A stretch of DNA of 64,000 nucleotides from Caldilineae bacterium (GCA_020634625.1 JACKBJ010000002.1:158275-222274); one strand, 5' to 3'. Numbered from the stretch's first letter, positions 4,422-59,839 are shown. Numbers and translations are program-made. The notes: generated by a model from the letters alone, not told the origin.

Positions 4422-4594
4422 CCCGACGCTGCATGCCGGCACTCGGCCTCGGGCCCGGACCGGTCGCCCCCGCGGGTCACTTTTGCGTTAATTGTCCACC
4501 ACCGCGTCCACGGCCAGGTAAGAACCTGGACAGAAGCGGCGCCTGACCCCTCGATTGCTGAACAATACCTTCTCACTACCTGAACGGAGGCACC

Positions 4595-21660: not shown

Positions 21661-21665
21661 GCCGC

Positions 21666-22286
21666 ATGGCCTGGATCGAGACCGTTCCACCGCGTGACGC
21701 GACCGGACGCTTGGGGCGCATCTACGCCCAGGCCATCGCCCGGGCCGGGAAGGTCTTCCAGATCCTGCAGATCCAGAGCCCGAACCCGGCCGTGCTCCAG
21801 GGCAGCATGCAGCTCTACACCGCCAGCATGATGGGCGCGTCGCCCCTCTCGCGGGCCGAACGCGAGGCGCTGGCCACCACCGTCAGCCGCCTCAACGCCT
21901 GCCACTACTGAACCCAGGCCCATGCGGCGGACTTCCGGTCGGAGGTCGAGGCGGAGATCGCTGCCGGCACCTGGCCCGGCCCCGGCGACGTCGGGGCGAT
22001 GGTCGACGCCTTGATCCACGACGATGCGCGCGTCGCCTGGTCGCCCCGTCTGCGCGCCCTGCTCGACTATGCCGCGACGCTGACGCGCCGCCCCGCCAGC
22101 GTCGATTCCGCCGATCTCGACGCGCTGCGCGCCCAGGGCCTCGGCGACCGCGCCATCCACGACGCGGCCCAGGTCATCGCCTACTTCAACTACATCAACC
22201 GCGTCGCCGACGGCCTGGGCGTCGATCTCGAGCCGGACATGCCGCCTCGGCCGCTGCATTCCCAGGTCGCGCCGCAGGAGCCCTAG
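21666..22286 (+). CDS. AhpD/carboxymuconolactone-decarboxylase-family 'peroxidase-related' protein with an in-frame TGA (selenocysteine candidate, CxxU), or a nonsense-disrupted pseudogene
   Basis: The two track ORFs (ending 21911, starting 21999) share one frame with no other stop between them. The TGA at 21909-21911 falls exactly where the second Cys of the family motif belongs (VSRLNACHY-U-TQAHAA versus the family VSxxNGCxYCxxxH). A hairpin with a GGUC loop lies 19-37 nt downstream. Confidence 0.5.
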
Positions 22287-23534: not shown

Positions 23535-24758
23535 CTAGGACTCCACCACCGCCATCGCCGCCTCGCGTAGCGCAGCTGCCCGGTCGGTCCGCTCCCAGGG
23601 CAGGTCCAGGTCGTCGCGGCCGAAGTGCCCGTAGGCCGCCGTCTGGCGGAAGATCGGCCGGCGCAGCTTCAGGTCGCGGATGATGGCGCCCGGCCGCAGG
23701 TCGAAGTGCGCCTGCACCAGCTCGCGGATGCGCTCGGGGTCGATCGTCTCGGTGCCGAAGGTGTCGATGTTCAGCGAGAGCGGCTCGGCCACGCCGATGG
23801 CGTAGGCCAGCTGGATCTCGACCCGCGTGCAGAGCCCGGCCGCGACCAGGTTCTTGGCCACCCAGCGCGCCGCGTAGGCGCCCGAGCGGTCGACCTTGGT
23901 GGCGTCCTTGCCGCTGAAGGCCCCGCCGCCGTGGCTGGCCATGCCGCCATAGGTGTCGACGATGATCTTGCGGCCGGTCAGGCCGCAGTCGCCCTGAGGG
24001 CCGCCGATGACGAAGCGCCCGGTCGGGTTGGTCAGGATGCGCGTCTCGGCGTCCATCAGCTCGGCCGGCATGACCGGCTTGATCACGTGCTCGATCAGGT
24101 CGCGGCGAATCTGCTCCTGGCTCGCGTCCGGGTCGTGCTGGGTCGAGATGAGCACGGTCGTGACGCGCTTGGGCTTGCCGTAGGCGTACTCGACCGAGAC
24201 CTGGCTCTTGCCGTCCGGGCGCAGGTACTTCAGGGTCGAGTTCTTGCGCACGTAGGCCAGCCGGCGGGTCAGCTGGTGCGCCAGGTGGATCGGCAGCGGC
24301 ATCAGCTCGTCGGTCTCGTCGCAGGCGAAGCCGATCATCATGCCCTGGTCGCCGGCGCCGATGGCCTCGACCTCGGCGTCGCTCATCGCGCCTTCCTTGT
24401 GCTCCAGCGCCTCGTCGACGCCCATCGCGATGTCGGCCGACTGCTTGTTGATGGCCGTGATCACGCCGCAGGTGTCGGCTGCGATGCCGTAGGCGGCGTC
24501 GGTATAGCCCGTGGCGCGGATGGCGTCGCGGATCACCTGCGGGTAGTCGACCGTCGCGCTGGTGGTGATCTCGCCGGTGACCAGGGCCAGGCCGGTGGTC
24601 ACCACCGTCTCGCAGGCCACCCGGCCGCGCGGGTCCTGCTCCAGAATGGCGTCCAGGATGGCGTCCGAGATCTGGTCGCAGAGCTTGTCCGGGTGGCCCT
24701 CGGTCACCGATTCGCTGGTGAACAGGAATCGGGGCGAGGACATGAACGAGGTCGTCAT
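23535..24758 (-). CDS. metK: S-adenosylmethionine synthetase
   Basis: [34 protein letters not shown] and the full MAT signature. An alternative start is the ATG 15 nt downstream (MSSPRF). Confidence 0.95.
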
Positions 24759-24760
24759 CG

Positions 24761-25768
24761 TCAGGCTCCTTGATGCCGGCCGGCATGGCGGCCATGCTGG
24801 TGCGCGCGGTTCAGGGCGTCCACGAGCGCGTCGGGGATGTCGCCGAAGTGCTCGGCATAGCGCTTGGTGAAGCTGGGGATGGTGTAGCGGTGGGCCTGGG
24901 TCCCCAGCGATTCCAGGGCGTAGGTGGCGGCCAGCGCGCCGGCGCGGCCGGCCACCGGCCAGGGCAGACCGTGCAGCAGCCCGAACATGATGCCCGAGCG
25001 GTAGGCGTCGCCGATGCCGGTGGGATCGACCTGGCGCGTGGCGGGCACGGCCGGGATGACGTGCGTCTCACCGCCGGCGCGGATCACCGAGCCCTTCTCG
25101 CCGTGGGTGATCACCACCACGTCGGTCATGCCGACGATGGCATCCTCGGTCAGGCCGGTCTTCTCGTGCACCAGCTCGAACTCGTACTCGTTGGCCACGA
25201 AGCAGGTGCAGCCCTCGATGCCGGCCACCAGCGCCTCGCCCGACAGCCGCACGATCTGCTGGCTGGGGTCGTAGACGTAGGGGATCTCGAGGTCCCGGCA
25301 CTCCTGGACGTACTTGACCATCGCCTCGGGCGCGTTGGGCGCGATCACGGCCAGCTCGATCGAGGCCGCGTCGAGGTCGTGGAAGGACAGCTGCGTGGCC
25401 GAACCCATCGCGCCGACGTAGAAGCTGGCGATCTGGCGGTTCTTGCGGTCGGTCGAGACGAAGAAGCTCGAGGTGCTCTCGTCCGGCAGGACCCGGGTCA
25501 GGGACATGTCCACGCCGTGCTGCTCGAGGCGCTCGTGGTCGTAGGCGAAGTCGGCGCCGACGGTGGCCATGACGTGCGGGCATTCGCCGAGCAGGGCCAG
25601 GTTGTAGGCGATGTTGGCCGCGCAGCCGCCCGGCTCGCGACGCAGGCTGTCGACCAGGAAGCTGACCGAGAGCACGTCGATCTTGTCGGGCAGGATGTGC
25701 TCGCTGAAATCGCCCGGAAAGGACATGATGTAGTCGTAGGCGACCGATCCGGTGATGATGATGCGCAT
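24761..25768 (-). CDS. PfkB-family carbohydrate/nucleoside kinase (adenosine kinase, or 5-deoxyribose / methylthioribose-type kinase)
   Basis: Ribokinase fold motifs are present: the GG motif ([16 protein letters not shown]) and the anion-hole [12 protein letters not shown]. It is sandwiched between mtnA and metK in one operon. Confidence 0.75.
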
Positions 25769-25792: not shown

Positions 25793-26878
25793 CTAGGACG
25801 CGGGCACCGGGCTGGCGGCGGCCTCGACCGCCGCGCGCAGGCCGGCTTCGAAGGGTGGGCGCAGCACGCCTGCCTCGGTCACGATGGCGCTGATGTAGCG
25901 GGCCGGCGTCAGGTCGAAGGCCGGGTTGGCGGCCGTGACCCCGGCCGGCGGGATGCGCCGACCGGCGATCTCGGTGACCTCGGTCGGGTCGCGCAGCTCG
26001 ATCGGGATTTCGGCGCCGCTGGGGCAGCCCAGGTCGATGGTCGAGCTCGGGGCGACGACGTACACCGGCACGCCGTTCTCGCGGGCGACCACGGCCAGCG
26101 GATAGGTGCCGACCTTGTTGGCCACGTCGCCGTTGGCCGCGATCCGATCGGCGCCGACCAGCACGGCGTCGACCTCGCCCCGCTGCAGATAGTAGCCGGC
26201 CGCTCCGTCGACGATCAGGGTCTGCGGCACGCCCAGCCGCGCCAGCTCCCAGGTGGTCAGCCGCGCGCCCTGCAAGCGCGGCCGCGTCTCGTCCACCAGG
26301 ACCCGGATTCGCTTGCCCTGCTCGTGCGCGGCCCGGATCACGCCCAGGGCGGTGCCGTAGTCGACCGTGGCCAGCGCGCCGGTGTTGCAGTGGTGGATCA
26401 CGGTGCAGCGCTCGGGCAGGAGCGCCGCGCCATGGGCGCCCATGCGCCGGTTGGTGGCCAGGTCCTCGTCGGCGATGCGCTCGGCCTCGGCCAGCGCCAG
26501 CGTGCGCAGGGCGGTCGGCTCGGTCTCGCCGGCCGCGATCTCGGCGTCGAGTCGACCGAGCACGCGGCGCAGGGCCCAGGCCAGGTTGGAGGCGGTCGGC
26601 CGGGCCGCCAGGAGCGTCTCGGCGTCGATGGCCAGATCGGCGCGCAGGCCGGCGGCCGTCGACGCCGTCGACCCCTGGGCACCGAGGGCCAGGCCGTAGG
26701 CCGCCGTGGCGCCGATGGCCGGGGCGCCGCGCACGGCCATGTCGCGGATGGCCTCGGCCAGACTGGCCACGTCGTCCAGGACCAGCGTCGACTCCCGCTC
26801 GGGGAGCAGGCGCTGGTCGATCATGCAGACGCGCGCGTCGCGCCAATAGACGGTTCGTGTCGGGCTCATCGCCTTCAT
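25793..26878 (-). CDS. mtnA: Methylthioribose-1-phosphate isomerase family (MtnA/DrdI, eIF-2B-like)
   Basis: [19 protein letters not shown] and [15 protein letters not shown]. The start was set to the ATG (MKAMSPT) because the TTG at 26911 would overlap the riboswitch terminator. Confidence 0.85.
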
Positions 26879-26900
26879 CGCATGCCTGCCCTGCCGTGGC

Positions 26901-26941
26901 ACCAAAAACAAACGACGTCTCGCCGCAGGCGCAGAGACGTC
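26901..26941 (-). terminator. Intrinsic terminator forming the riboswitch expression platform
   Basis: The minus strand reads GACGUCUC-ugcgccugcggc-GAGACGUC followed by GUUUGUUUUUGG. Confidence 0.7.
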
Positions 26942-26950
26942 GGGGAGAAC

Positions 26951-27062
26951 CTCTCATCTCTCGATCCGCGCTGTCGCGCGAGCCGGCGGACTTGGCACCG
27001 TGGCCTTGGCCTGGTTGCCGGGGTTTCGTCGGGCCGTTCCCTCCACCCCTCTCGATAAGATC
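26951..27062 (-). promoter_or_regulatory. SAM-I (S-box) riboswitch aptamer
   Basis: The minus strand reads UCUUAUCGAGAGGGGUGGAGGGAACGGCCCGACGAAACCCCGGCAACCAGGCC...GGUGCCAAGUCCGCC...GAUCGAGAGAUGAGAGG. This matches the S-box consensus blocks (UCUUAUCaAGAG, GGAGGGA, GGCCCgAUGAA, GCAACC, GGUGCnAAnUCC, closing AGAUGAGAG). The P1 helix is UCUUAUC/GAUGAGA. Confidence 0.85.
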
Positions 27063-27181: not shown

Positions 27182-27190
27182 TGCTAGCCT
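27182..27190 (+). promoter_or_regulatory. Extended -10 (TGcTAGCCT) 9 nt before the MscS ATG; implies a leaderless mRNA
   Basis: ctgTGcTAGCCTggacgggcgATG. Confidence 0.35.
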
Positions 27191-27199
27191 GGACGGGCG

Positions 27200-28036
27200 A
27201 TGGATCTCCTGGAACTCCTATCCGGCACGATGGGCGAGGGCATGCGCAGCGATGGGCTGGGCTCGCTGCCCCAACGGCTCGTCCTGCTGGCGGGCCTGCT
27301 GCTGGCCGTCTGGATCGGCCGGCGCCTCTCCTGGCCTCTGGCCTGGCGCCTGGTGCGGCTGTCGCGCTACGCGCACCGCGCCCGGGCGCATCGGCCGGAG
27401 CGCCAGACCACGCTGCAGGGTCTGATCGCCGACCTGATCGGCTTCGCGGTGCTGATCGTGGCCTTCATCGTCGGCGTGGTGCAGCTGGTCGGTGTCGACG
27501 TCGACACGGTCGTCTGGACGGTCGGCTTGCTCAGCGCCGGCTTCGGCCTGGGGGCGCGACCGATCATCAGCGACATCCTGGCCGGCATCAGCTACGTCTT
27601 CGAGGACGCCTTCTCGGTGGGCGAGAAGGTGCTCTTCGCCGAGGTCGAGGGCGTGATCGAGCAGGTCAACCTCCGCACGACCCACATCCGGGCGCCCTCG
27701 GGCGAGCTCTGCATCGTGCCCAACGGCGAGATCCGGGTGATGCGCAACTTCAGCCGCGGACGCTTCTCGACCGCCAACGTCACCCTGTCGGTGGCCAGCA
27801 GCGACCTCGGCCGCGCGCTCGAGATCCTCGAAGACCTCGGGCCCGCGGCGGCGGAGGCCTTGCCCGACCTGAACCTGCCCTGGCAGCTGATCAGCAAATC
27901 GGGCGAGCTGGGGACGCGGATGGAGCTGACCCTCCTGGCCCGCACCCGCTTCGGGACCGGCGCGGAGCTTCGACCCCGGCTGATGGCCCTGGTGCACGAG
28001 CGGTTGAGCGCGGCGGGGATCGATTTCGATGCCTGA
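27200..28036 (+). CDS. Small-conductance mechanosensitive channel (MscS family)
   Basis: TM helices are followed by the MscS beta-domain (VGEKVLFAEVEGVIEQVNLRTTHIRAPSGELCIVPNGEI). Confidence 0.85.
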   Translation: MDLLELLSGTMGEGMRSDGLGSLPQRLVLLAGLLLAVWIGRRLSWPLAWRLVRLSRYAHRARAHRPERQTTLQGLIADLIGFAVLIVAFIVGVVQLVGVDVDTVVWTVGLLSAGFGLGARPIISDILAGISYVFEDAFSVGEKVLFAEVEGVIEQVNLRTTHIRAPSGELCIVPNGEIRVMRNFSRGRFSTANVTLSVASSDLGRALEILEDLGPAAAEALPDLNLPWQLISKSGELGTRMELTLLARTRFGTGAELRPRLMALVHERLSAAGIDFDA

Positions 28037-34329: not shown

Positions 34330-36306
34330 TCAGCGACGCCAGGCCTGTCCGAGCAGCGGCACGAAGACCCGCTGGCGCGGTTCGACCACCCGGTAGCGGG
34401 CCACGGCCGGCCGGCCGCCGGCCAGCCAGACCGTGATGTCGCGCTTGTCGGGATCCAGGCGGAGGGCGCGCACCCGCCGCGGCTCGATCGAGGCGCCGAG
34501 CGGCGACAGGATGTGGTACTCCCAGGTCAGGCCGTTCCAGTGCAGCAGGCCGTTGGCGTCCACCAGCACCCAGGCCGTCCCCGGCGCCGGCGAGTCGACG
34601 TCCAGCAGCCCGATGGCTTCGGGGATCGGCAGCTCGACCGGCGTCCAGGTCTGCCCATCGAAGCGAAGCAGCCGATCGGCCTCGGTGCCGCTCCGCGCCC
34701 GCGCGATGGCCCAGCCCTCGTTGGCCGTGCTGACCACGAGGCGCGGCACCCAGTAGCCCTCGCCGATGGCCTGGGCGGTCCAGAGGCCGTCGGCCAGATG
34801 CAGGATCTCACCCTCGGCGCCGAACCAGCCCTCGGGCTCGACTCCGCCCCGGAGCATCGAGAAGGCGCCAAAGCGGGCGCTGAACGGCGCCCCTTCCACC
34901 TGCTGCCAGTCGCTGCCGTCCCAGCGGGCCACGACGTTGCTGCCCGTGAGCCAGGCCTCCTGCTCGGAGATGGCCTGCACCGCGTACAGATCCCAGGTCT
35001 TTTCGACCGGCCAGGCGCGCCAGGCCGCGCCGTCCCAGCGCCAGGCCAGGGCTTCGGGCGGGCTGCCCGGCGCGCTGCCGACCGCCCAGCCTTCGCGCTC
35101 GCTGGCCAGGTCGAGGTCGGTCACCCGCGTGCCAGCGGGCATGGCCTGGGCCAGCCGCCAAGGGCCGTCGCTGGCACCGACCATGCCGGCGCTGACGGCC
35201 AGGCCGCCGGCCCAGCCGAAGTCATCCGAAACGGCATCGAGCGCTTCGAGGGGATTGGCCTGCGGCCACAGGGATTCGGCGGCCTGGCCGTCTCGCACGC
35301 GCAGCACCTCGCCCTGCGTGCCCAGGGCGAAGAAGCCGTCTTGGCCCGGCGCCAGGCCGCTGACGACCGAGCCGGTCGGAAGCTCCACCGGCGACCAGTC
35401 GAGCGCGGCGTAGCGATAGACCTTTTCGCCGACCAGGACGTAGGCGGTCGATCCGCGCCAGACCGCGTCATGGTAGACGAGATCGTCCGGACCGGCCTCG
35501 CGCCAGACGCCGTCGGCGAGCTCCCAGGCGCCGGCGCCGAGGAAGAGCCCCCGGCCCTCGGCCGAGAATGCGATGGCCGCCGGGCGTCGAATCCGCGGTG
35601 CGGTGGCGTCGATCTGCCAGCCCGTGCCATCGTTGACCAGGACCTCGCCGCTGGCCGCCATGGCGTAGGCTCGCCCGCCTCCAGCGCTGGCCACCGCGCG
35701 GATATCGACCAGACGCAGCGCGTCGGGCACCGCCGTCGGTCGCCAGATGCCGCCGTCCCAGTAGAGGATGGTGCCGCGCGTGCCGGCCGCCCAGCCGTCG
35801 GCGGGCCCGGCGAGGTCGAGGCTGGACAGGCTGCTGCCGGTCGGTGACGGGTAGCGCAGCCAGCTGGATCCGATCAGGCGAAAGATCGCTCCGCCGTCGC
35901 CGACCGCGAAGCCGGTCGAACCGACGATCGCGATGCGCGAGAGGCTGACGTCGTTGACGATCTGAGCGCTGCGCCAGACCCCGGCCTCCCAGCGCACGAA
36001 GCTGGTCTGGTCCCGAGTGTCGCGGCCAGCCACGAAGGCGGAGCGATCGAGACCCCAGGCCGAATCGGCAGCCACGAGCGCCAGATCGTCGACCTGGCGA
36101 AAGCCACCGTAGAGCAGCTCCCAGCTCGGAACCCAATCGCCGCGTGGCAGCATGGCCTGGGCCCGGGCCACCGGGCCGCCCGAGCCTCCGAGGATCAAGG
36201 CCGCGGCGAGCGCGGTGGCCAGCCGCCCGGCCCGACCAGGCTGGGATCGACGCAGGGGTGTGAGCATTCGGAGCCTCCCGTGACGCGTGCCGAAGCGCCA
36301 GCGCAT
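34330..36306 (-). CDS. Secreted BNR/Ycf48-like beta-propeller repeat protein
   Basis: Signal peptide present. Blades of the form GWAxG...W(D/N)G..W recur many times (GWAAGTRGTILYWDGGIWRP, EAWLTGSNVVARWDGSDWQQV, GTAWVLVDANGLLHWNGLTWEY). Confidence 0.55.
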   Translation of the reverse strand: MRWRFGTRHGRLRMLTPLRRSQPGRAGRLATALAAALILGGSGGPVARAQAMLPRGDWVPSWELLYGGFRQVDDLALVAADSAWGLDRSAFVAGRDTRDQTSFVRWEAGVWRSAQIVNDVSLSRIAIVGSTGFAVGDGGAIFRLIGSSWLRYPSPTGSSLSSLDLAGPADGWAAGTRGTILYWDGGIWRPTAVPDALRLVDIRAVASAGGGRAYAMAASGEVLVNDGTGWQIDATAPRIRRPAAIAFSAEGRGLFLGAGAWELADGVWREAGPDDLVYHDAVWRGSTAYVLVGEKVYRYAALDWSPVELPTGSVVSGLAPGQDGFFALGTQGEVLRVRDGQAAESLWPQANPLEALDAVSDDFGWAGGLAVSAGMVGASDGPWRLAQAMPAGTRVTDLDLASEREGWAVGSAPGSPPEALAWRWDGAAWRAWPVEKTWDLYAVQAISEQEAWLTGSNVVARWDGSDWQQVEGAPFSARFGAFSMLRGGVEPEGWFGAEGEILHLADGLWTAQAIGEGYWVPRLVVSTANEGWAIARARSGTEADRLLRFDGQTWTPVELPIPEAIGLLDVDSPAPGTAWVLVDANGLLHWNGLTWEYHILSPLGASIEPRRVRALRLDPDKRDITVWLAGGRPAVARYRVVEPRQRVFVPLLGQAWRR

Positions 36307-36418: not shown

Positions 36419-36427
36419 TGCTATACT
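36419..36427 (+). promoter_or_regulatory. Extended -10 (TGcTATACT) for the M23 peptidase transcript
   Basis: catttgTGcTATACTccgcac, about 80 nt upstream of an aaaggag RBS. Confidence 0.4.
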
Positions 36428-36506: not shown

Positions 36507-38408
36507 ATGCTCGGGCGAGCGACACGACACGATTCCCACCGAAGCGCGATCCGCCGCGAGGTTGCCGGATCGGGCACGGGTCGGCGTATCTCGACGGTCT
36601 GGCTGCTGGTCGGCTTGCTGGTCAGCCTGCTGATCCTGTCCCAGCTGGGTCGGGGCGGGCGCCTCGAAGCGCGCGCACGCGCGGTCCCGGCACCGCTCGG
36701 GTCGCCGGCCGAGCCGCTCGCCCCAGGGCTCGCGGACTTCGTCCGCGGCCCGGAGCAGCTGCTCCAGGATGCGGAGCTCGTCTTCGGCGCTGGCGCCGGA
36801 CGCTTCGACACGGCGGCCTTCCTGGCAGGCCGGCCCGAGCTGCTGCCCGGGCCGCCGGCCGCGACGGCCGCCGCCATCGACGGGGTGGCGCGGCGGCACG
36901 CCATCGATCCGCGCCTGCTGCTCAGCCTGCTGAGCCTGGATCCGGCTGGGGAAGGCGTCGACACCGCCGACCGCGCGGCGCGCATCGCCGTCTGGCTGGC
37001 CGACGGCTACTACGGGCTCAAGCTCCGCGGCGAGGCCGATCTGATCTTCGCCGACGGCAGCCGCCAGCGAGGACCGGTCGAGGGCGGCGCCGCGCACTTC
37101 GCCGTCGCGCGCTATCTGGCCCGTCAGGGGACGGCCGTCGAGCAGCCAGCGCGACAGGCCCGTTTCGCCGAGCGCTACGCCGAGCTCTTCGGTGCTGCGC
37201 CCCGTCTGGAGGCACCGGTGCCGGATGGGTTGCGGCAGCCGCCCCTCCTGCTGCCCTGGGCCGAAGGGCAGCGCTGGCACTACACCGGCGGTCCACATGG
37301 CGCCTGGGGCGTGGCCTCGGCCTGGGGTGCGGTCGACTTCGCCCCGCCCTCGCTCGTCGGCTGCCGGGCCGCTCCGGAATGGACCCTCGCCGCGGCGCCC
37401 GGACGGGTCACCTGGTCGGACACGGGTCTGGTGCTGGTCGACCTGGACGGCGATGGCAACGAAGGCACGGGCTGGGTGCTGGCCTACCTGCACATGGCCA
37501 GCGAGGGCCGGGTCGCGGTCGGCCGATGGCTGGAGGCGGGCGAGCCGCTGGGGCACCCCTCCTGCGAGGGCGGTGTGGCCGACGGCGCGCATCTCCACTT
37601 CGCGCGGCGCTACAACGGGGAGTGGCTCCCGGCCGCCGGTGGGCCGGTGCCGATGGAGCTCTCCGGCTGGCGCTTCAGCTCCCTGGGCGGGGAGTATGAC
37701 GGCAGCATGCAGCATCCCGAGCAGGGCGAGCGGATGGCCGTTACCAGCCGCCGCGGCGGCGCATCCGACCTGGTCAGCGATAACGGGCCGGCGCGCCGTG
37801 AGGCCCTCGCCAGCGCCTGGGCGGCGCTGTCCGCCGGCGCGCCGGCCCGACTCGAAGACGCCGACTCGGGGCTGTCGCGCGCGCCCGAACCGATGACCGA
37901 AGCGGCGCGTCCCGCCGCGCCGGCGACTGCGGCCGCTGCCATGTCGGCGGCCGGCGGCGCCACGGGCGCGGCCACGATCGCCGTCCGAATCGCCCTCGAA
38001 GGCCGGGATGACGCGTCCACGCCGGTCGTGCTCGGCCTGGTCGGCGCCGCCGCGCCGCCACTGGTGTTGATGGCGCGCACCAACGCGGCCGGTGAGACCG
38101 GCGCCATCGCGCTTCCGGACGAGGCCCGCGGGATCTACGATCTGACCCTACGAGCGCCGGGCTTCGCGCCCGCCTTCGTGCTGGGTGTGACGATCGGCGA
38201 GCCGGGCCTCGAGATCGACCTCAGCGCCGGCGGACGGCTGCGCCTGGCTGCCGGCGAGCTCAACGGCGATGACGTGATCGACGGGCGTGACCTCGGCGCC
38301 TGGCTGACGCATTGGCGCGCCGGGCGTCCACTCGCCGATCTGGACGGCGATGGCTGGGCCGGACCGGGTGATCTCTGGCGGGCCATGAACGCCGCCGCGG
38401 GACGCTGA
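36507..38408 (+). CDS. M23-family (LytM-like) metallopeptidase with a C-terminal dockerin-type Ca-binding module
   Basis: The M23 core is GGPHGAWG...WGAVDFAP...GWVLAYLHM...HPSCEGGVADGAHLHF. The C-terminal dockerin-like repeats are LNGDDVIDGRDLGAWL and DLDGDGWAGPGDLWRAM. Confidence 0.75.
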   Translation: MLGRATRHDSHRSAIRREVAGSGTGRRISTVWLLVGLLVSLLILSQLGRGGRLEARARAVPAPLGSPAEPLAPGLADFVRGPEQLLQDAELVFGAGAGRFDTAAFLAGRPELLPGPPAATAAAIDGVARRHAIDPRLLLSLLSLDPAGEGVDTADRAARIAVWLADGYYGLKLRGEADLIFADGSRQRGPVEGGAAHFAVARYLARQGTAVEQPARQARFAERYAELFGAAPRLEAPVPDGLRQPPLLLPWAEGQRWHYTGGPHGAWGVASAWGAVDFAPPSLVGCRAAPEWTLAAAPGRVTWSDTGLVLVDLDGDGNEGTGWVLAYLHMASEGRVAVGRWLEAGEPLGHPSCEGGVADGAHLHFARRYNGEWLPAAGGPVPMELSGWRFSSLGGEYDGSMQHPEQGERMAVTSRRGGASDLVSDNGPARREALASAWAALSAGAPARLEDADSGLSRAPEPMTEAARPAAPATAAAAMSAAGGATGAATIAVRIALEGRDDASTPVVLGLVGAAAPPLVLMARTNAAGETGAIALPDEARGIYDLTLRAPGFAPAFVLGVTIGEPGLEIDLSAGGRLRLAAGELNGDDVIDGRDLGAWLTHWRAGRPLADLDGDGWAGPGDLWRAMNAAAGR

Positions 38409-38471: not shown

Positions 38472-38480
38472 TGCTACAAT
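38472..38480 (+). promoter_or_regulatory. Extended -10 (TGcTACAAT) 9 nt before the ATG; implies a leaderless mRNA
   Basis: gTGcTACAATcggcgcctcATG. Confidence 0.4.
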
Positions 38481-38489
38481 CGGCGCCTC

Positions 38490-40757
38490 ATGTCACCCCT
38501 GCTAGCCCTCGCATCTCCGGTCTCGCTGGCGCTCGCCGCCCTTGCGAGCCTCGTTCCCGCCTCGAGGCAGCGCTTCCGACCGCGACTGCTGCTGCCGCTG
38601 CTGGCGCTCGTCGCGCTCGGCGCCGCGGTGACGCAGCTGGCCATGCTCTGGGACGGCACGCGGGCGAGCCTGGGCGTGACGCTCTCGCCCTGGACCGCGC
38701 GCCTGTTCACCGTCGGGCCGCGTCTCGAGGTCGATGCCTTGGCGGCCTACGGCGTCCTCCTGGTCTGCCTGGCGAGCCTGGTGGCGCTGCTGCATGGCCT
38801 GCGGGATGAGTCCCTGGCGATCGAGTCGCTGGCCGGCCCCTTGGCGGTGGCCAGCAGCGCCACGCTGTTCTGTGCCGCCACGCGTTCGCCCCTCGGGCTG
38901 GTGTCGAGCTGGCTCTTGATGGACCTGGCGCTCTTCTTCGGCGCCGGCGTTCGCCGGCGTGGCCTCCTGGCTGGCCAGCTCGGACTGCTCTTCATCCTGG
39001 CCGGCCTCATGGGCCTGGCCGACCCGAGCCTGGTCGGCGGCGAGCTTGGCAGCTGGCCGCGCCTCTGGCTGCTGGCCGCGGCCGGCATCCGGATGGGGAC
39101 CTATCCCTTCTCCTGGGCCCTGCCGCGGACTCGGATGGACGGTGTCTGGCGGGCCGGCATCCTGCGTCTCGGACCCGCGGTCGCCGGTGCCACGTTGGCC
39201 ATCCGGGCTGGCGCGAGCCTCGGCTCGGGCAACGGGGTCGATCCGCTGTCGCTGCTGCCCGGCGCGCTCGCCATGCTCTTCGGCGGCCTCCTGGCCTGGC
39301 TCTCGGCGGAGCGCGGCACCGCGCTCGACTGGGCGTTCACCGCCGGAGCGGGCCTGCTGCTGACCGCTGCGGCCCTCGGAAGTCCGGTCGGCACGACGGT
39401 CGCGGCCCTGCTGCTGGCGGACCTGGTGCTCGGCCGCCTGGCGCAATACCTGGCCGAGGATACCCCCGGTCAAGCGCCGCGCCTTGCCTGGGGACTGTCG
39501 GCAGCCAGCCTGGCCGGCCTGCCGCCCTTGCTGGGCTTCTTCGCGCGCGTGCTGCTCTACCGGGCCCTGCTCGATGGCGGACATGGTTGGGTGCTGCTCA
39601 CGGCGGCCCTGTCGACGGCGCTGACGGCGGCCCCCTTCGGTCGGCTGCCCGCCCTGTCTCCCAGGACCGAGGGCCCGAGCGCCTGGCAGCTGCTGCCGCT
39701 CGGCCCGGCGCTTCCGCTGGTCCTGCTCGGTCTGCTGTCCGGCTGGCTGCCGTTCGCCCTGTCCGGCGCCGAGTGGTCGCCGATGGCGGGGAGCGCGCGC
39801 GCCTTGCTCGGCCTGGATTGGCGCCTGATCTCGGCCTTGCTGGTGCCGCCGCTGCTGGGCTTCGCGATTCACCGCAGCGGATGGGGCAGCCGGCGGCCGC
39901 CCGTCGATGCGCCCCGCCGGCGTGTCAGCCGATTGCTGCGCCTGACCGAGCTCTTCGACGGCATGCGGACGGCCTTGATCCAGACGGGCCGGATGATCCA
40001 TCGCAGCCTCGGGCTGGTCGAGGGGCATCGCACCATGGCGTTGACCCTGCTGGCGGCCGTGGGCGTGGGCCTGACGGTCCTGGCCGGCGCCGGTCCCCTG
40101 CCCGATCCGGTCGGACCGGGTCTCGACGGGGTGGGCATGATCCTCTGGGGCGTGGCGACGCTCATCGCGGTGGTCAACCTGCTCGTCACCCGGCGCCTGG
40201 TCACCCTGATCATCCTGTGGGTCAGCTACCTGCTCGTCGCGGCGGTGCTGCTGGTCAGCGGCGGCACGCCGACGCCGGCGGCGCTGGTCGTCAGCGCCCT
40301 GGTCAAGGGACTGGCCGGCATCGTCGTCGTGGCGATCCTGTCCATCAGCGTGGTTCAGCTCGGTGCGGACGGCGCGGCGGGGGCGGCGCGTCGCGCCCCG
40401 CTGTTGGCGGCCGAGCCGAGCGATCGCAACGAGACCCCCTTGCGCCTCCTGGCCCTGTGCATCGCCGTGCTCCTCACCGGCAGCCTGCATGCCACCACCC
40501 TGCAGCCGACGCTGCCGGACATGGTCCTGCGCCCGGCCCTGACCCTGATCGTCGGCGGGGTCTTGACCGCCATCTTCGCGCGCAGCCCGCTGCGGCTCGC
40601 CGTGTCGGTGCTGGTCGCCCTGTGCGGCTTCGAGCTGATCTATGCTCGGCTCGATCCGGGGCTGTTCATGACCGGTAGCCTGGCCGCGTTCCACATCCTC
40701 TTCGCCATCCTGGCCTCGCTCTATGTCGGGCTGGCCTTGGACCCCGAAACGGCATGA
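38490..40757 (+). CDS. Highly divergent NuoL/M/N-like (PF00361, complex I/Mrp antiporter-like) polytopic membrane protein, 755 aa
   Basis: About 20 predicted TM helices. A degenerate core (GTYPFSWALP...AGATLAIRAG) aligns to FPLHTWLPDA...AATMVTAGVYLLIR, and AYSSIAHMG corresponds to AFTAGAGLLLTAAALG. The antisense 730-aa ORF is a shadow. Confidence 0.5.
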   Translation: MSPLLALASPVSLALAALASLVPASRQRFRPRLLLPLLALVALGAAVTQLAMLWDGTRASLGVTLSPWTARLFTVGPRLEVDALAAYGVLLVCLASLVALLHGLRDESLAIESLAGPLAVASSATLFCAATRSPLGLVSSWLLMDLALFFGAGVRRRGLLAGQLGLLFILAGLMGLADPSLVGGELGSWPRLWLLAAAGIRMGTYPFSWALPRTRMDGVWRAGILRLGPAVAGATLAIRAGASLGSGNGVDPLSLLPGALAMLFGGLLAWLSAERGTALDWAFTAGAGLLLTAAALGSPVGTTVAALLLADLVLGRLAQYLAEDTPGQAPRLAWGLSAASLAGLPPLLGFFARVLLYRALLDGGHGWVLLTAALSTALTAAPFGRLPALSPRTEGPSAWQLLPLGPALPLVLLGLLSGWLPFALSGAEWSPMAGSARALLGLDWRLISALLVPPLLGFAIHRSGWGSRRPPVDAPRRRVSRLLRLTELFDGMRTALIQTGRMIHRSLGLVEGHRTMALTLLAAVGVGLTVLAGAGPLPDPVGPGLDGVGMILWGVATLIAVVNLLVTRRLVTLIILWVSYLLVAAVLLVSGGTPTPAALVVSALVKGLAGIVVVAILSISVVQLGADGAAGAARRAPLLAAEPSDRNETPLRLLALCIAVLLTGSLHATTLQPTLPDMVLRPALTLIVGGVLTAIFARSPLRLAVSVLVALCGFELIYARLDPGLFMTGSLAAFHILFAILASLYVGLALDPETA

Positions 40758-42076
40758 TCGCCACCAGCCTTCTCCTGGCGCTGGCCCTGCTGCCCCTGTG
40801 TGCGGCGCTGCTCTGCATCTGGTTGGCGCCGCGCGATCCCGAGAAGTCCCTGAAGCTTTCCTATGGGGCGGCGCTGCTGCTCGTGCTGCTGGTCTCGCTC
40901 TCGGTGGTGGATGCCCGGATCGGGCTCTTCGCCGGGCGTGCCTTGGAGCTGCAGCCCATCGCCCAGCTGGGCGTTCAGCTGCTGGGTCTGGCGATGTTGG
41001 GCTTCCTGCTCTCGCTCAATCGGGCGCAGGCCCAGTGGCTGGAGGCCTGGCTGCCCCTGGCCTGGCTGAGCCTCTTCGGCCTGATCCTGTCGCTGCTCAT
41101 CTCCTCGCTGCCGGTCGCCCTGCTCATCTTCCTCGGCGCGGCCCTGCTCTGGGCCTTCGCGCTGCCGCCCTCGGCGCGGGCGAGCTCGGCCGGGGTGACC
41201 ATGCGCTTCGCGGCGCTGATCTCGCTGACGCTGCCCCTGCTCCTGATCGCCTTCCGGCTTGCCGAGGAGCGCGCCGCAAACGACTCGGTCGAGCGGCTGG
41301 TCCTGGCCTTGGCCGTGCCGGCCTTCGGGCTCATCCTGGGCCTGATCCCCCTGCATGCCTGGACCCTGACCCTCGCCGGCGGCACGCCGCGCGCGATGGT
41401 GTTCGGCGTCATCTCCCTGGTGCAGACCACGGGCTTCATGCTCCTCCTGCGCACATTGGCCGAGTACCCCTGGGCGACCGAAGTGGCCCGTGGCACGCTG
41501 GTGGCGGCCGGCGCCCTGTCCGCCCTCGTCGGCGGTTGGATGGCGCTCTCGGCCCGCCGCGACGATCCCGACGACTGGCTGGTCTACGCCGCCATCGCCA
41601 ACAGCGGCATGCTCCTGGCCGGGCTCGGCACCCAATCCGAGGTGGCCGGGGCCGGCGTGGCGCTGCTGCTCTTCGCCCGCGTCCTGGCGCTGGTCTTGCT
41701 CGACCTGGCGCCCCGGGTGCCGCGGCTGCTGCGGCGACTGGCCTATGCGGCCGGTACGCTCGCCCTGGCGGGAACGCCCGGCCTGGCCGGTTTCCCCGGC
41801 CTGTGGCTGATCCTGCTCAAGCTGCAGGCGGGTCAGAACGGGGTGGCGAAGCCGGCCATCCTGGCCGGCAGCGGACTGCTCTTCGCGACGGCCGTGCGCC
41901 GCTGGCGGGCCGACACGGTCATCGAGGATGCGACCTGGATCGACGTGCCCGACCCGGGCGCGCGCCGAGCCGCGCTGATCCTGCTGGCGCTGCTCGTGTT
42001 GCTGGGCATCGCGCCCCAGATCGTCGCGCCCGCCTTCGGCATCGCCCTGCGCGACATCTTCTTCTCGCTTCCTTGA
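40754..42076 (+). CDS. Divergent NuoM/N-like (PF00361) membrane protein, 440 aa
   Basis: LIPLHAWTLTLAGGTPRAMVFGVISLVQTTGFMLLLR aligns with FPLHxWLPDAhxGAPTPVSALLHAATMVTAGVYLLIR. AYSSIAHMG corresponds to YAAIANSGMLLAGLG. The start overlaps the upstream stop by 4 bp. Confidence 0.6.
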   Translation: MIATSLLLALALLPLCAALLCIWLAPRDPEKSLKLSYGAALLLVLLVSLSVVDARIGLFAGRALELQPIAQLGVQLLGLAMLGFLLSLNRAQAQWLEAWLPLAWLSLFGLILSLLISSLPVALLIFLGAALLWAFALPPSARASSAGVTMRFAALISLTLPLLLIAFRLAEERAANDSVERLVLALAVPAFGLILGLIPLHAWTLTLAGGTPRAMVFGVISLVQTTGFMLLLRTLAEYPWATEVARGTLVAAGALSALVGGWMALSARRDDPDDWLVYAAIANSGMLLAGLGTQSEVAGAGVALLLFARVLALVLLDLAPRVPRLLRRLAYAAGTLALAGTPGLAGFPGLWLILLKLQAGQNGVAKPAILAGSGLLFATAVRRWRADTVIEDATWIDVPDPGARRAALILLALLVLLGIAPQIVAPAFGIALRDIFFSLP

Positions 42077-42237: not shown

Positions 42238-43236
42238 ATGTTGAACGGGGACGGAGACATGGGCACACAACCGCAAGAGCTGCCGCATGCCGAGTTCAGC
42301 GAGGACTATTGGAAAGCCCTGCTGGAGCAGGGTGAGGGTTCGGCCGAGATCCCGATCGGACCGGTCGAGGCCTTCGAGCCCGGCGACCTGGGAGCCGGCT
42401 ACGCCAATGGGGCGCCCCGCGCCGTCAACCGGCGCGAGCCGGAGAAGTGGGACCAGCTGGATGAATGGCACGACGCTGGCAAGGAGTTCGTGGCGCCGGT
42501 GATCGGCTGCAACAAGGGCGGTCTGCTCGTGCGGGTCTGCGAGGGGCTTGGATTCGTGCCGGCCTCACAGCTGGTGGATCTGCCGCATTCGCTCGGCACG
42601 CCCGACCTGCGCTCCGATCTGGAGAAGATGGTCGGCCACGAGATCACGCTGCGTCTGATCGAGATCGATCGCGACCGCGATCGGGTGATCTGTTCTGAGC
42701 GCGCCACGCGCTGGCACGGCGGTGATGCGGACGCGCGCCTGGCCAGCCTGCAGGAGCGCATCGGCGAGGACATCGAGGGCACCGTGCGCAGCGTCTGCGA
42801 CTTCGGCGTCTTCGTCGACCTGGGCGGGATCGACGGATTGATCCACATCTCGGAGCTCAGCTGGCAGCGGGTGAGCCATCCCTCCGACGTGGTGGCCCTC
42901 GACGAGCGTCTGCGGGTGCGCATCCTGAACGTCGACCTCGAGGGACGCCGCGTGGGGCTCAGCCTCAAGCGGCTGCGCGACGACCCCTGGCAACGGGTGG
43001 CCGACCGCTATGCCGTCGGCGACGTCATCGAGGCCAAGGTCACGAACGTGGTTCATTTCGGCGCCTTCGCGCAGGTGGACGAAGGCGTCGAGGGGCTCAT
43101 CCACATCTCCGAGCTGTCGGACACCCCCTTTCTGTACGCCCAGCAGGTCGTCAGCGAAGGCCAGGTGGTGAAGGTGCGCGTCCTGCACATCGATCCAGGG
43201 TCCCGCCGTCTCGGCTTGAGCATTCGTCAGGCCTGA
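42238..43236 (+). CDS. S1 RNA-binding domain protein (truncated ribosomal protein S1-like, three S1 domains)
   Basis: Three S1 OB folds are present (GDIEGTVRSVCDFGVFVDLGGIDGLIHISELSW and GDVIEAKVTNVVHFGAFAQVDEGVEGLIHISELS). Confidence 0.8.
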   Translation: MLNGDGDMGTQPQELPHAEFSEDYWKALLEQGEGSAEIPIGPVEAFEPGDLGAGYANGAPRAVNRREPEKWDQLDEWHDAGKEFVAPVIGCNKGGLLVRVCEGLGFVPASQLVDLPHSLGTPDLRSDLEKMVGHEITLRLIEIDRDRDRVICSERATRWHGGDADARLASLQERIGEDIEGTVRSVCDFGVFVDLGGIDGLIHISELSWQRVSHPSDVVALDERLRVRILNVDLEGRRVGLSLKRLRDDPWQRVADRYAVGDVIEAKVTNVVHFGAFAQVDEGVEGLIHISELSDTPFLYAQQVVSEGQVVKVRVLHIDPGSRRLGLSIRQA

Positions 43237-52922: not shown

Positions 52923-53290
52923 CTGGGTTCATCTCCTCGAGCAAGATGGGCTCTCGGGCTCGTCGGCAAGAGTCGACCATGGGGCTTGCGCGGCGGGCGA
53001 CGGTTTCAAGGATCGTTCAAGGTGCCATTCATCATACATCAGCCTTCGAACGGCGAGGATAGGCCGGCGGGCTGAGCCGGGGCTGAGCGATGGCTTAGGG
53101 CTCGCTCACCTTCGCCGGCCTGGCGCGGCCGGGACCGGGAATGGAACCAAATCGGTTGGGCCGACGTTCTATAGGTGTCCCGGATGCCGGCACGGGCTTG
53201 GCCCAGGTCGGGGCAGGGGTCCATCATGAACGGGTCGAGGTCGCGGCGGGCCCTCGGGGGCCGGCCGATAGCACGGAGGCAAGAAACGTC

Positions 53291-56200
53291 ATGCGCACGA
53301 TGTTGCGGGTCCTGCTGGTCACGAGCGCGCTGCTGGCGGTCACCGCTGGCTGCACGAAGAAGGAGACGCCGGTGTCGCCGTCGGGCGAGGGGCAGGGGCC
53401 AGGCGATGGCGCCGGCGGACGGCCCTTGGCCGCGCCCGAGCCCACGCCCGGGATCTACTTCCGCCTGTCCGACGCAGGGGCCGGTGGCGCCGAGGACGCT
53501 GCCGCGGTGACGCCGGCCGAGGCGGCGCCGCTGAGCGGGGCGGAGCTGGCGGCCATCCTGGGCCGGCTGCCCGCGATGCCGGAGGGCAGCTCGGTGCAGG
53601 CCGACTTCGCGCTGCAGCCCGGCCCCAAGCCGCCGGCCGTCGCCGGCGAGACCCGGCCCCAGGCCTTCCCGCCCGTCGACGAGCGGGGCGATCCGCCGCC
53701 GAGCGTCGAGGCCGGGCCCCTGACGGTGCTGCGCTTCGGGCCGGAGGGCGAGCTGGACTCCGCGCCGCGGCTCTCGATCACCTTCTCCAAGGCGATGGTG
53801 CCCCTGACCTCGCAGGCCGCCTTGGCCGCGGCCGAGGTGCCGGTGACGCTGGAGCCCCAGCCGGCCGGCCTCTGGCGCTGGGTGGGCACCCGGACCCTGA
53901 TCTTCGAGCCCGAGGGCGAACGCTTTCCCAAGGCCACCGACTACACCGTCACGGCGCCGGCGGGGTTGAAGGCCGCCGACGGCGAGGCCCTGGCCGAGGC
54001 GGTCAGCTGGCGCTTCGGCACGCCGCCGGTGAGCCTGAGCGTGTTCCACCCGGACGACTATCCGCCCGCTGATCGGTTGCCGCTGCTCTTCCTCGGCTTC
54101 GACCAGGCCGTCTCGGTCGAGGCGCTGCTGCCCTTCGTCGAGCTTCGCGCGGCGGGCCAGTCCTTTGGGCTGCGCCCGGCGACGCCGGCCGAGATCGCCG
54201 ACGACCGCGAGGTCGCGGGACTGGTCGAGGACTGGTCGGCGGCGCCGCGCGCCGATCGCTGGATCGTGCTGCGGCCGGAGCGCGAGCTGCCCCTGGGCGC
54301 CAAGGCGGAGCTTCGCCTCGCCAAGGGCCTGCCTTCGGCCGAGGGACCGCGGACGACGAGCCGGGTCCAGAACCGCGACTTCGAGGTCTATGGCCCGCTG
54401 CGCGTGACCCGGATCAGCTGCTCGGGCGACGACTACCAGGAGAAGGTGCTGCGCGAGGACACGCGTCGGGCGAGCCTGGGCAAGTGCGCACCCTTCGGGT
54501 ACTGGAGCATCGAGCTGAGCAATCCGCTGGCGCTCGAGACGGTCGACGCCGAAGCCATCGACATCGAGCCGGCTCTGCCGGGCCGGCGGGTGACGGTCGG
54601 CGAGGGCAGCATCCAGATCGGCGGCGCCTCGGCCGGTCGTAGCCGCTACACCGTCACGTTGCCGGGCGACATCCAGGACGTCCACGGTCAGCGCCTGGAG
54701 GAGGGCTTCGCGCTGCGTTTCGAGACCGGCGACATGCGGCCGGCGTTGGCGGTACCGGGTGACGAGATGCAGCTGCTCGACCCGGATGCCGGCGGCAAGC
54801 TGCAGGTCTACAGCATCAACAACGACGGGCTGCGGGCCAGCCTGTATCGGGTCGGACCCGAGGACTGGAGCGCCTACCAGATCGCGCGCAACGCGATCGC
54901 TGCCGAACAGCCGCTGGATCCGCCCGGCGAGCGGGTCTGGCAGGGGGATCTGCGGCCGAAGGGCGATCGCGATGCGGTGGCGACGGCCCAGCTGGACCTG
55001 GCGCCGGGCCTGGATGCCGAGGGCCATGGGCAGCTGATCGCCGTGATCGAGCCCGCCAAGTGGAGCCCGCGCGACGAGAATTGGTCCAACCGCCCGCAGT
55101 GGCGCTGGGTCCAGGTCAGCGCGCTCGGCCTGGACGCCTTCGGCGAGGCCGAGGGCGTCACCGCCCGCGTGACCGATCTGGCGGACGGCGCGCCGCGCGC
55201 CGAGGTCGATCTGGAGCTCTACCGCTTGCCACGCATCGCGTGGCGCGGCGGGGAGACCCTGGCGTCGGCGCCGGTCTCGGCGGCCCGTGGCCGCACGGAC
55301 CGCGACGGACTGGCCCTGCTCGCGGTGCCGGCCGTCACGGACGGCGAGCCGAGCGAGACGATGCTGGTCGCGCGTGCCGGTGGCGACACGGCCATGCTGC
55401 CCTACGGCGTCCTGGGCTGGCGGGCCGGCGGTGAGCAGCTGGCCTGGCAGGTCTTCGACGATCGCGGCCTGTACAAGCCGGGCGAGGTCGCCAGCGTCAA
55501 GGGTTGGGTGCGGCGCCTGGACCTGGGCAAGGGCGGTGACGTCGGGGCCTTGGAGGACTGGCCCGAGCGCATCGACTGGAGCTTGCGGGCGCCCAACGGT
55601 GAGGAGGCCGGCAGCGGCAGCTTCGCGGTGACGCCGCTGGGCGGCTTCGCCGGTCAGGTGCCCATTCCGGAGGGCAGCGAGCTGGGCGAGGCCTGGCTGC
55701 AGCTGCGGGCCGTGGGTGGCCGCCTGCCGGCCGACGGCCGCGAGAGCGGCCTCGGGTTGCAGATCGCCGAGTTCCGACGGCCCGAGTTCGAGGTGACGAC
55801 GCGCCTGGACGAGCCGAGCCTGATCTTCGGCGACACGGCGCGGGTGACGGCCAAGGCCGAGTATTACGCCGGCGGCCCGCTGCCCGGCGCCGAGGTGGAC
55901 TGGATGGTCCGTGCCGAGCCGAGCGCGTACAGCCCGCCCGGCCACGACGACTTCGTCTTCGGCACCTGGCGACCCGGCTGGGGCTTCTGGGAACAGCCGG
56001 GCGGCCAGGGCGGCGAGCAGTCGCATCAGGGCCGTACCGACGCGGTGGGCGAGCACGGCCTGGCCGTGGCCCTCGAGGGCGCGGTCCCGGTCGGACCGGC
56101 CAGCTTCCTGGCCCAGGCCACCGTCATGGACGTCAACCGCCAGGCTTGGACCAGCTCCACGAGCTTCCTGGTCCACCCGGCCCGTGACTACGTCGGCCTG

Positions 56201-59623: not shown

Positions 59624-59628
59624 CCCGA

Positions 59629-59663
59629 GGGCCCGGCCACCGCGCCGAGCGGTGGCCGGGCCC
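59629..59663 (+). terminator. 14-bp perfect-stem hairpin (7-nt loop) 6 nt after the A2M stop
   Basis: GGGCCCGGCCACCG-cgccgag-CGGTGGCCGGGCCC. Confidence 0.6.
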
Positions 59664-59839
59664 CGGCGCTTGCCGAGCCCGCCGCGCGCCGATGGACGGG
59701 ATGCGGCGGCGCCCCTCCCCCGCCGCCGATCGACGGCGGGGCGAGGGCATGCCGCGAGGCTCTGCGCTATCCTCTTCCCGCCGGCCGCGTTGAGCCTGGC
59801 AAGCGCTCCGGTCCGCGGAGCGTCCTTCAGGAGTCGATC

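Follow-up and report, generated by a model that had tools for sequence, protein, structure and literature searches.

Two adjacent genes in a 64,000-nucleotide stretch of DNA from a Caldilineae bacterium (JACKBJ010000002.1; GC content 72%), called the window throughout, encode divergent membrane proteins, A and B, that are predicted to share the fold of the antiporter-like subunits of complex I and Mrp. Judged by alignment, the titratable Lys/His/Glu proton relay of that superfamily is gone from both. In complex I, Mrp, membrane-bound hydrogenases and DAB alike, protons are pumped by antiporter-like subunits, and how charge moves along their Lys/His/Glu axis is debated. We put at roughly even the chance that A and B form a self-contained membrane complex whose ancestry lies in the antiporter modules found in Mrp, complex I and group-4 hydrogenases and that still moves or gates an ion. 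Because the relay is gone, the pair is probably neither a lysine-relay H+ pump nor a canonical Na+/H+ antiporter. A and B differ from known members of the superfamily in being a stand-alone gene set, in the arginine-substituted axis and in a new C-terminal domain. The features of the pair are listed below, with TM for transmembrane segment.

38472-38480, +: extended -10 element, TGCTACAAT, read from the sequence; the hexamer stops 9 nt short of the gene A ATG
38490-40757, +: gene A (755-aa open reading frame, ORF), an MrpA-like fusion of antiporter-like core, lateral helix, TM16 and C-terminal 7-TM domain
38490-39875, +: A core, residues 1-462, a 14/15-TM antiporter-like unit with discontinuous TM7 and TM12 (DSSP of the model)
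39894-40007, +: A lateral helix, residues 469-506, amphipathic and Arg-rich, with helices at 475-483 and 486-506 (model and hydrophobic moment)
40023-40085, +: A TM16 equivalent, residues 512-532, after the conserved junction GLVEGRR.MAWT (R514, T519)
40122-40754, +: A C-terminal domain, AC, residues ~545-755, 7 TM, helices between 547 and 743 (model, and alignment with stand-alone AC proteins)
40754-40757, +: ATGA, the stop of A overlapping the start of B, read directly
40754-42076, +: gene B (440-aa ORF), an MrpD/NuoM/NuoN-like 14-TM subunit

Both ORFs lie exactly where a preliminary description of this DNA had placed them. The ATGA overlap through which it had coupled the two genes is present, and an overlap of this kind points to translational coupling. 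The G+C fraction at third codon positions (GC3) is 0.90 in the correct frame of both genes, a composition of the coding type. Protein A is identical to the NCBI entry H6648_02095, named 'hypothetical protein', as A is in the source records wherever it has a name; B is unnamed there or carries generic names of the MnhD/HycC type. A literature search found no description of the A/B family.

Fold and anatomy of A and B

Library hidden Markov models (HMMs) are nearly blind to both proteins. B matches PF00361 marginally (22.5 bits, with a Pfam gathering score of 21.5), while A has no Pfam match and receives just a 16-bit NuoN fragment from NCBIfam. An exhaustive search of 1.84 billion representatives returned ~30 full-length relatives of A (~30 clusters at 50% identity), together with a second tier of ~550-aa relatives that match A residues 1-526 and weakly pass PF00361 on their own. 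A joint profile of the N-terminal part of A matches NuoL at 2e-27 and MrpA at 2.5e-27 and 1.9e-26; the A profile also matches chain 6u8y_X of the archaeal MBS complex at 2.1e-24, and a profile match to E. coli NuoM stands at 1.5e-21. For B, 61 homologues were found, and the B-family profile has the same NuoM-like MBS chain, 6u8y_X, as its best PDB sequence match (1.9e-10) and reaches Thermus Nqo14 at 6.5e-4. The two proteins are homologous to one another, by BLAST and with an hhalign probability of 92%. PF00361 membership, as first proposed, is thus borne out for B by its own score and for A through the NuoL and MrpA profiles, and the structures agree; the searches pointed to no unrelated transporter family and to no adjacent canonical partners.

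The AlphaFold (AF2) model of A has a predicted local distance difference test score (pLDDT) of 81. Its top Foldseek matches are the MrpA chains 7d3u_A, 7qru_A and 6z16_A, over ~755-780 columns, followed by NuoL, with TM-scores of 0.5-0.7. A is modelled as an MrpA/NuoL fold that is MrpA-like over its full length. The label NuoL/M/N-like, given to both proteins in the preliminary description, therefore holds at the level of the superfamily, but A is more exactly MrpA-like with an extra 7-TM domain. The model of B (pLDDT 90) superposes on MrpD, NuoM and NuoN at TM-scores of ~0.8, which gives B a predicted 14-TM MrpD/NuoN fold.

Hallmarks of the antiporter fold are present in both models. The core of A has a beta-hairpin after TM2 and helix breaks at residues 202-220 (TM7) and 342-347 (TM12), and the B model is broken at residues 340-345. 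The fold motifs noted earlier can be read as 'YPFSWALP' in A (residues 205-212) and as 'IPLHAW' (198-203) and 'YAAIANSGM' in B, in which invariant Trp residues are numerous. The lateral-helix segment holds the highest hydrophobic-moment windows in all of A (0.55-0.57), the loop that bears it contains 10 Lys or Arg residues, and the profile alignment with Dietzia MrpA extends through this region. Since 20 of the 25 loop Lys and Arg residues of A fall on the lateral-helix side and 5 on the opposite side, the helix would be cytoplasmic and the N-terminus of A outside, as in NuoL and MrpA. At ~32-38 residues, the modelled helix could reach across a single neighbouring subunit but not a second, and in this it differs from complex I.

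The AC domain contains two conserved charges, K606 (40305-40307), conserved in 79% of sequences, and E715 (40632-40634), which lies in 'GFELIYA' and is Glu in 75% and acidic in 86%. AC matched nothing among PDB sequences or in Pfam (both at E<=10), nor E. coli NuoJ, NuoK or NuoH with filters off. One candidate reading took the last three AC helices as a NuoK/MrpC-like unit, comparing 'GFELIYA' with 'GLEIMINA' of NuoK; with the search against E. coli NuoJ and NuoK negative, we regard it as unsupported.

Charge axis and conservation of the family

Residues were mapped onto E. coli NuoL/M/N through family HMMs, and conservation was counted in 28 A and 35 B sequences. The basic positions of NuoL are Arg in A: K229 (TM7) corresponds to R201 (39090-39092; 28/28), H254 (TM8) to R226 (39165-39167; 27/28), K342 (TM11) to R316 (39435-39437) and K399 (TM12) to R353 (39546-39548; 28/28). 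The positions of NuoL E144, D178, H334, H338 and D400 are Leu or Val, the TM5 Glu position itself being L142. One turn further along TM5 than the lost Glu, and four residues past a Trp that is itself invariant, A has an Asp in every sequence (D145, 38922-38924; 28/28), and D311 is acidic in 82%.

In B, the equivalents of the TM5 Glu, TM7 Lys, TM8 Lys and TM12 Lys/Glu are A130, I194 (Leu, Ile or Val in 34 of the 35 sequences and Tyr in one), Q224 (kept in 33/35) and L350. Within the membrane, B has a single invariant charge, R309 (41678-41680) in the middle of TM11; a further invariant residue, E180, lies where TM7 reaches its outer end. Neither protein, then, has the conserved relay of TM5 Glu, TM7 Lys, TM8 Lys/His and TM12 Lys/Glu. 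The preliminary description had the charged residues largely replaced by Ala, Leu or Gly, which describes B but not A, where the basic positions are Arg. Its reading of the genes as an orphan, coupled pair that may not pump in the canonical way holds up in the HMM, profile, structure and context tests.

The A-B pair is a conserved family across Anaerolineae-class Chloroflexota. At all loci examined, from 13 GTDB species representatives and from metagenome contigs, A lies directly 5' of B, and the two genes either overlap or are separated by no more than 66 nt. All 13 representatives are metagenome-assembled genomes (MAGs) assigned to Anaerolineae, Anaerolineales, Ardenticatenales or Ca. Epilinea brevis. 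Anaerolineae are abundant filamentous bacteria in activated sludge and sponges, and A/B would be an unannotated, core-type membrane complex of theirs.

A split form occurs in other Chloroflexota/Anaerolineae contigs, as AN (550-580 aa), AC (200-230 aa) and B (455-500 aa), with AC and B overlapping. AN ends after the lateral helix and TM16, and the split AC is homologous to the C-terminal domain of A. By this comparison AN and AC are fused in the A of the window, an arrangement that speaks for a joint function of the two parts. AN retains Arg in both TM7 and TM12, together with the shifted acidic residue. For the shifted TM5 residue the split-family B has Glu in two of three alignable sequences and Gln in the third, and it also retains His or Arg in TM11 and Arg at TM12; this greater charge suggests that the lineage of the window is the more degenerate one. 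A scan of metagenomes with a DNA pattern for the TM12 motif PPTLGF[VA][AG]RW returned mostly hydrogenase-type loci and added six loci with the A/B module, four of the fused family and two apparently of the split family.

In one split-family locus (L029, 11758-13002, +), B overlaps by 4 nt the gene for an uncharacterised nucleotidyltransferase (PF14907), after which come DUF1858, DUF2249 and a faint COX1-like protein. These extra genes are a lineage-specific operon extension.

Both genes are under purifying selection. Against the L011 ortholog, the ratio of nonsynonymous to synonymous substitution rates (dN/dS) is 0.26 for B and 0.46 for A, with 0.21 for a neighbouring S1-domain gene and 0.44 for FtsK in the same genome pair, all rough values at a dS near saturation. 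Conservation extends to the promoter. The TGnTAnAAT element lies at an equal distance from the start codon in ~15 homologous loci, while the rest of the intergenic sequence is not conserved, and there is no Shine-Dalgarno sequence between the TGCTACAAT element and the ATG of A. Such extended -10 motifs are scarce (just 6 in the window on both strands, each 5' of a gene); a simple consensus promoter scan missed the one at 38472-38480. The conserved position supports the start codon of A, a promoter of the A-B pair's own and an mRNA that may be leaderless or nearly so, in keeping with the leaderless-type promoter first proposed for A. Elsewhere in the window, the MscS-like gene at 27200-28036 also has a TGnTAnnnT element (27182-27202, +) that ends exactly 9 nt before its ATG, as in gene A, a sign that this genome may use leaderless transcripts repeatedly.

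Relation to known systems and proposed function

Mrp (CPA3) provides the best full-length structural matches of A, to MrpA, and B matches MrpD. As in MrpA, the modelled A runs from an antiporter core through a lateral helix and TM16 to an additional TM domain at the C-terminus, and the order AN-AC-B of the split form parallels MrpA-N, MrpA-C/B/C and MrpD of the mrp operon. That operon, mrpA-G, encodes six or seven subunits that are generally all needed for activity (PMC5703873), whereas the present loci hold just A and B, or AN, AC and B, and Pfam finds no MrpB/C/E/F/G genes in the window or the related loci. AC also differs from MrpA-C in having seven TM rather than five, and it has no sequence similarity to MrpA-C, MrpB, MrpC or NuoJ/K. 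In MrpA, TMH17-21 adopt a NuoJ fold with three essential carboxylates, E706, D792 and E796, assigned to the Na+ path (PMC7419157); these Na+-path carboxylates are not identifiable in A.

Complex I has the same fold in NuoL/M/N (Nqo12-14, ND5/4/2), including the discontinuous TM7 and TM12 and the beta-hairpin after TM2, and A has a lateral helix of the NuoL type. The pair differs in its genes, with no NuoA/H/J/K or peripheral-arm (Q- or N-module) genes in the 64-kb window or in ~25 related loci. More broadly, Pfam finds no Nuo, Mrp small-subunit, hydrogenase or DabA (PF10070) family among the ~40 ORFs of the window, and the gaps between them hide no small hydrophobic ORFs. Nor does a Nuo, Mrp small-subunit, hydrogenase or DabA gene recur across the ~25 loci of the fused and split families. 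The preliminary description had remarked that complex I, Mrp and hydrogenase subunits were missing nearby and that DabA and Mrp partners were absent; within the window and these loci, both remarks hold.

Systems of the group-4 hydrogenase type (MBH/MBS/FHL) include the best PDB match of B, chain 6u8y_X, which is also a strong match of A. Loci of this type (L039, 5318-8392, -; L069, 3514-6572, +; also L043, L050, L081 and others) encode a truncated antiporter-like subunit of ~389 aa, in some cases joined to a NuoL-like protein of 620 aa in a ~1015-aa fusion (wetland and peat metagenomes). It shares with the A/B family the Asp four residues past the TM5 Trp and the GF..RW Arg at TM12; unlike A and B, it keeps the TM7 Lys and the TM11 His/Lys. 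Hydrogenase-type loci always carry NuoH(HycD)/B/C/D-like genes, with [NiFe] large-subunit genes and those for formate dehydrogenase or AFOR, whereas A/B loci lack all of these. The Chloroflexi module may have arisen from a subunit of the ~389-aa type that shed its titratable residues step by step.

If the pair is put together like MrpA-MrpD and NuoL-NuoM, B would lie between the core of A and AC, with the lateral helix holding it in place. That Mrp has a stable MrpABCD subcomplex (PMC5703873) also counts in favour of such a complex. We favour residual ion movement or gating over a pure scaffold because the buried charges (D145, R201, R226, R353 and often D311 and R316 in A; R309 in B) and the TM7 and TM12 breaks have been kept, at what would be a cost in a scaffold. 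The arginines could act as fixed charges along the old hydrophilic axis, either lining a path for anions or serving a salt-bridge-gated path for cations or water that also uses the K606/E715 pair of the AC domain. The drive might be the membrane potential or a gradient rather than redox chemistry. Ion and driving force are conjecture here. A more specific proposal, which we think rather unlikely, is that A-B is a membrane-potential-responsive anion conduit or a voltage or ion sensor with an arginine-only axis, perhaps coupled in the fused lineages to the neighbouring M23 hydrolase and beta-propeller, much as FtsEX controls EnvC. Were this so, the complex I/Mrp antiporter fold would have been turned to a non-protonic task, and paired antiporter-like subunits would for the first time be seen in a role that is stand-alone, independent of redox chemistry and not proton-pumping.

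Several observations weigh against a self-contained complex with an ion path. R316 is Arg in just 16 of the 28 A sequences. The TM12 Arg is also found in presumably active hydrogenase-type antiporter-like subunits, so that a TM12 Arg alone does not imply inactivity. Homology of AC to MrpA-C, NuoJ, MrpB or MrpC is hinted at solely by a low-TM-score global Foldseek alignment and is undetectable by sequence. The search for partner genes spans the 64-kb window and the related loci, and partners could be encoded elsewhere in the genome. All members of the family come from MAGs or metagenomes, none from a cultured organism.

Alternatively, A and B could suffice as a functional Na+(K+)/H+ antiporter of minimal size. 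In such a pared-down Mrp, the Lys/Glu relay would give way to Arg/Asp pairs and water wires. The MrpA/MrpD-like architecture, the housekeeping-type promoter and the strong constraint on both proteins would suit such a role, as would the charged axis of A (D145, R201, R226, R353) and the polar Q224, T225 and H201 with R309 in B. Arginine, however, does not normally give up its proton under physiological conditions, and no counterpart of the small subunits or of the MrpA-C carboxylates is detectable. Although MrpA alone or MrpA/MrpD was reported to sustain antiport in Methanosarcina acetivorans and Natranaerobius thermophilus, the stable MrpABCD subcomplex of B. pseudofirmus is inactive (PMC5703873). 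In the Mrp of that species, moreover, the substitutions MrpA-E140A, MrpA-K223A, MrpD-E137A and MrpD-K219A keep the complex and abolish antiport (PMC5703873). The equivalents of MrpD-E137/K219 in B are naturally Ala/Ile, and those of MrpA-E140/K223 in A are Leu/Arg, so that A is without the canonical Glu; we hold this alternative unlikely. The pair might also supply extra membrane subunits to a respiratory complex encoded elsewhere, be it complex I or one of the Mbx/Mbs/Ehr or hydrogenase type. The closest solved relative by profile is indeed the MBS subunit 6u8y_X, and the truncated subunit of hydrogenase/FHL type shares the shifted TM5 Asp and the TM12 Arg. Yet no NuoH/B/C/D-type neighbour appears in ~25 independent loci, when hydrogenase-type loci always have one, and the lateral helix of A spans one subunit while A has a terminal domain of its own, which suggests a closed two-protein unit; we regard accessory subunits as improbable.

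A transport-dead pair could serve as a membrane scaffold or anchor for envelope or division machinery. An M23-like gene lies directly 5' in most fused loci, a propeller gene in 8/13 and FtsK within ~3 kb 3' in most; B has no canonical charges and is constrained like S1, and it has many invariant Trp. Still, M23 and propeller are missing from several fused loci and from all split loci, A and M23 have separate promoters, and the adjacency to the S1-FtsK-YebC-RuvC housekeeping block may be inherited order. Invariant buried Arg and Asp and the kept helix breaks are not what one expects of a scaffold, which we likewise consider unlikely. That A or B plays the role of DabB in a CO2-hydration system like DAB/MpsAB is scarcely credible. 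DabB resembles the pair in so far as it, too, belongs to PF00361 and acts in a very small complex independent of complex I and Mrp. DAB requires the cytoplasmic, beta-carbonic-anhydrase-like DabA, however, and no PF10070 or carbonic-anhydrase-like gene accompanies A-B in the window or the related loci. DabB also conserves its proton-transfer residues (bioRxiv 10.64898/2026.05.01.722082), and A and B do not; together these two differences effectively refute a DAB-like role. Decaying pseudogenes or an annotation artefact in GC-rich DNA might be suspected from the very weak Pfam signal and from an Ala/Leu-rich composition typical of spurious ORFs at 72% GC. GC3, the homologues of A and B with their invariant residues, the dN/dS values, the confident AF2 models and the conserved promoter and start codon refute this, and we give it a negligible chance.

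The family is a variant made and kept by natural selection: on the axis, one subunit bears mostly non-titratable Arg and the other has almost no charge left, with fold, helix breaks, clamp and strong purifying selection all retained. It also shows that the fold can persist in the absence of a redox or small-subunit partner. A/B is a compact two-protein test object for what the relay residues are needed for.

Gene neighbourhood and other features of the window

The genes that flank the pair are as follows.

34330-36306, -: secreted 658-aa repeat protein, beta-propeller-like, without a Pfam match, divergent from the M23-like gene
36507-38408, +: membrane-anchored M23-like metallopeptidase, dockerin-like at its C-terminus, with a separate extended -10 element at 36419-36427
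42238-43236, +: short S1-domain protein (325-332 aa) extended at its N-terminus by an acidic stretch; it misses all NCBIfam cut-offs for ribosomal protein S1

The dockerin-bearing M23 peptidase reported upstream of A is present as an M23-like gene, but both of its domain signals fall below threshold (Pfam M23 at 24.2 bits, threshold 28.7; dockerin_GC at 18.7, cut-off 29). H264...D277 and the HLH motif are conserved in 9 homologues, and the 13-residue His-Asp spacing resembles that of LasA-type M23A enzymes. The protein is probably an active LasA-type peptidase. A membrane anchor lies at its N-terminus, and it also has two dockerin-like Ca-binding repeats and a beta-sandwich region of the carboxypeptidase-regulatory-like kind. 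The gene stands 5' of A in most species loci of the fused family, is missing from several and never occurs in the split family. As a frequent but not universal neighbour with its own promoter, it is context rather than an established partner of A-B. A strict M23-A-B operon was considered and rejected, given the separate, conserved promoter of A and the several loci in which M23 does not occur.

The propeller-like protein has Trp/Gly-rich repeats, and its gene is a conserved neighbour. Its homologues adjoin the pair in 8/13 fused-family species loci, beside the M23 gene or A, and never in the split family. The neighbours of the split family vary and include DUF4446, thioredoxin, a glycosyltransferase with Ddl and MurF, and HMG-CoA reductase. 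On the 3' side, the S1-domain protein, FtsK, YebC and RuvC recur in both families; the short S1-domain gene sits between B and ftsK in many fused and split loci, and FtsK lies at most ~3 kb 3' in most fused loci and in one of the split family. This adjacency looks like an inherited housekeeping gene order. None of the four proteins A, B, M23-like and propeller-like matched a PADLOC model of anti-phage defence.

Away from the pair, about 2 kb at 19864-21999 holds no convincing gene; long ORFs overlap there on both strands with atypical codon-position GC, and the segment has no Rfam or tRNA match. An S-adenosylmethionine (SAM) riboswitch (RF00162, 77 bits) lies at 26951-27061 (-), preceded by the extended -10 element TGTACAAT at ~27094. 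It fronts genes for an IF-2B-family (MtnA-type) protein, a PfkB kinase and a SAM synthetase (25793-26911, 24761-25768 and 23535-24758, all -), and the locus is an ordinary SAM-controlled methionine-salvage/SAM operon. Genes for very large secreted or surface proteins occupy 357-7129 (+) and 53141-62296 (+), among them an NHL and VWA protein of 1354 aa, a protein of 844 aa with eight DUF4397 repeats, a bacterial alpha-2-macroglobulin of 2160 aa and a CotH kinase with a lamin-tail domain of 818 aa.

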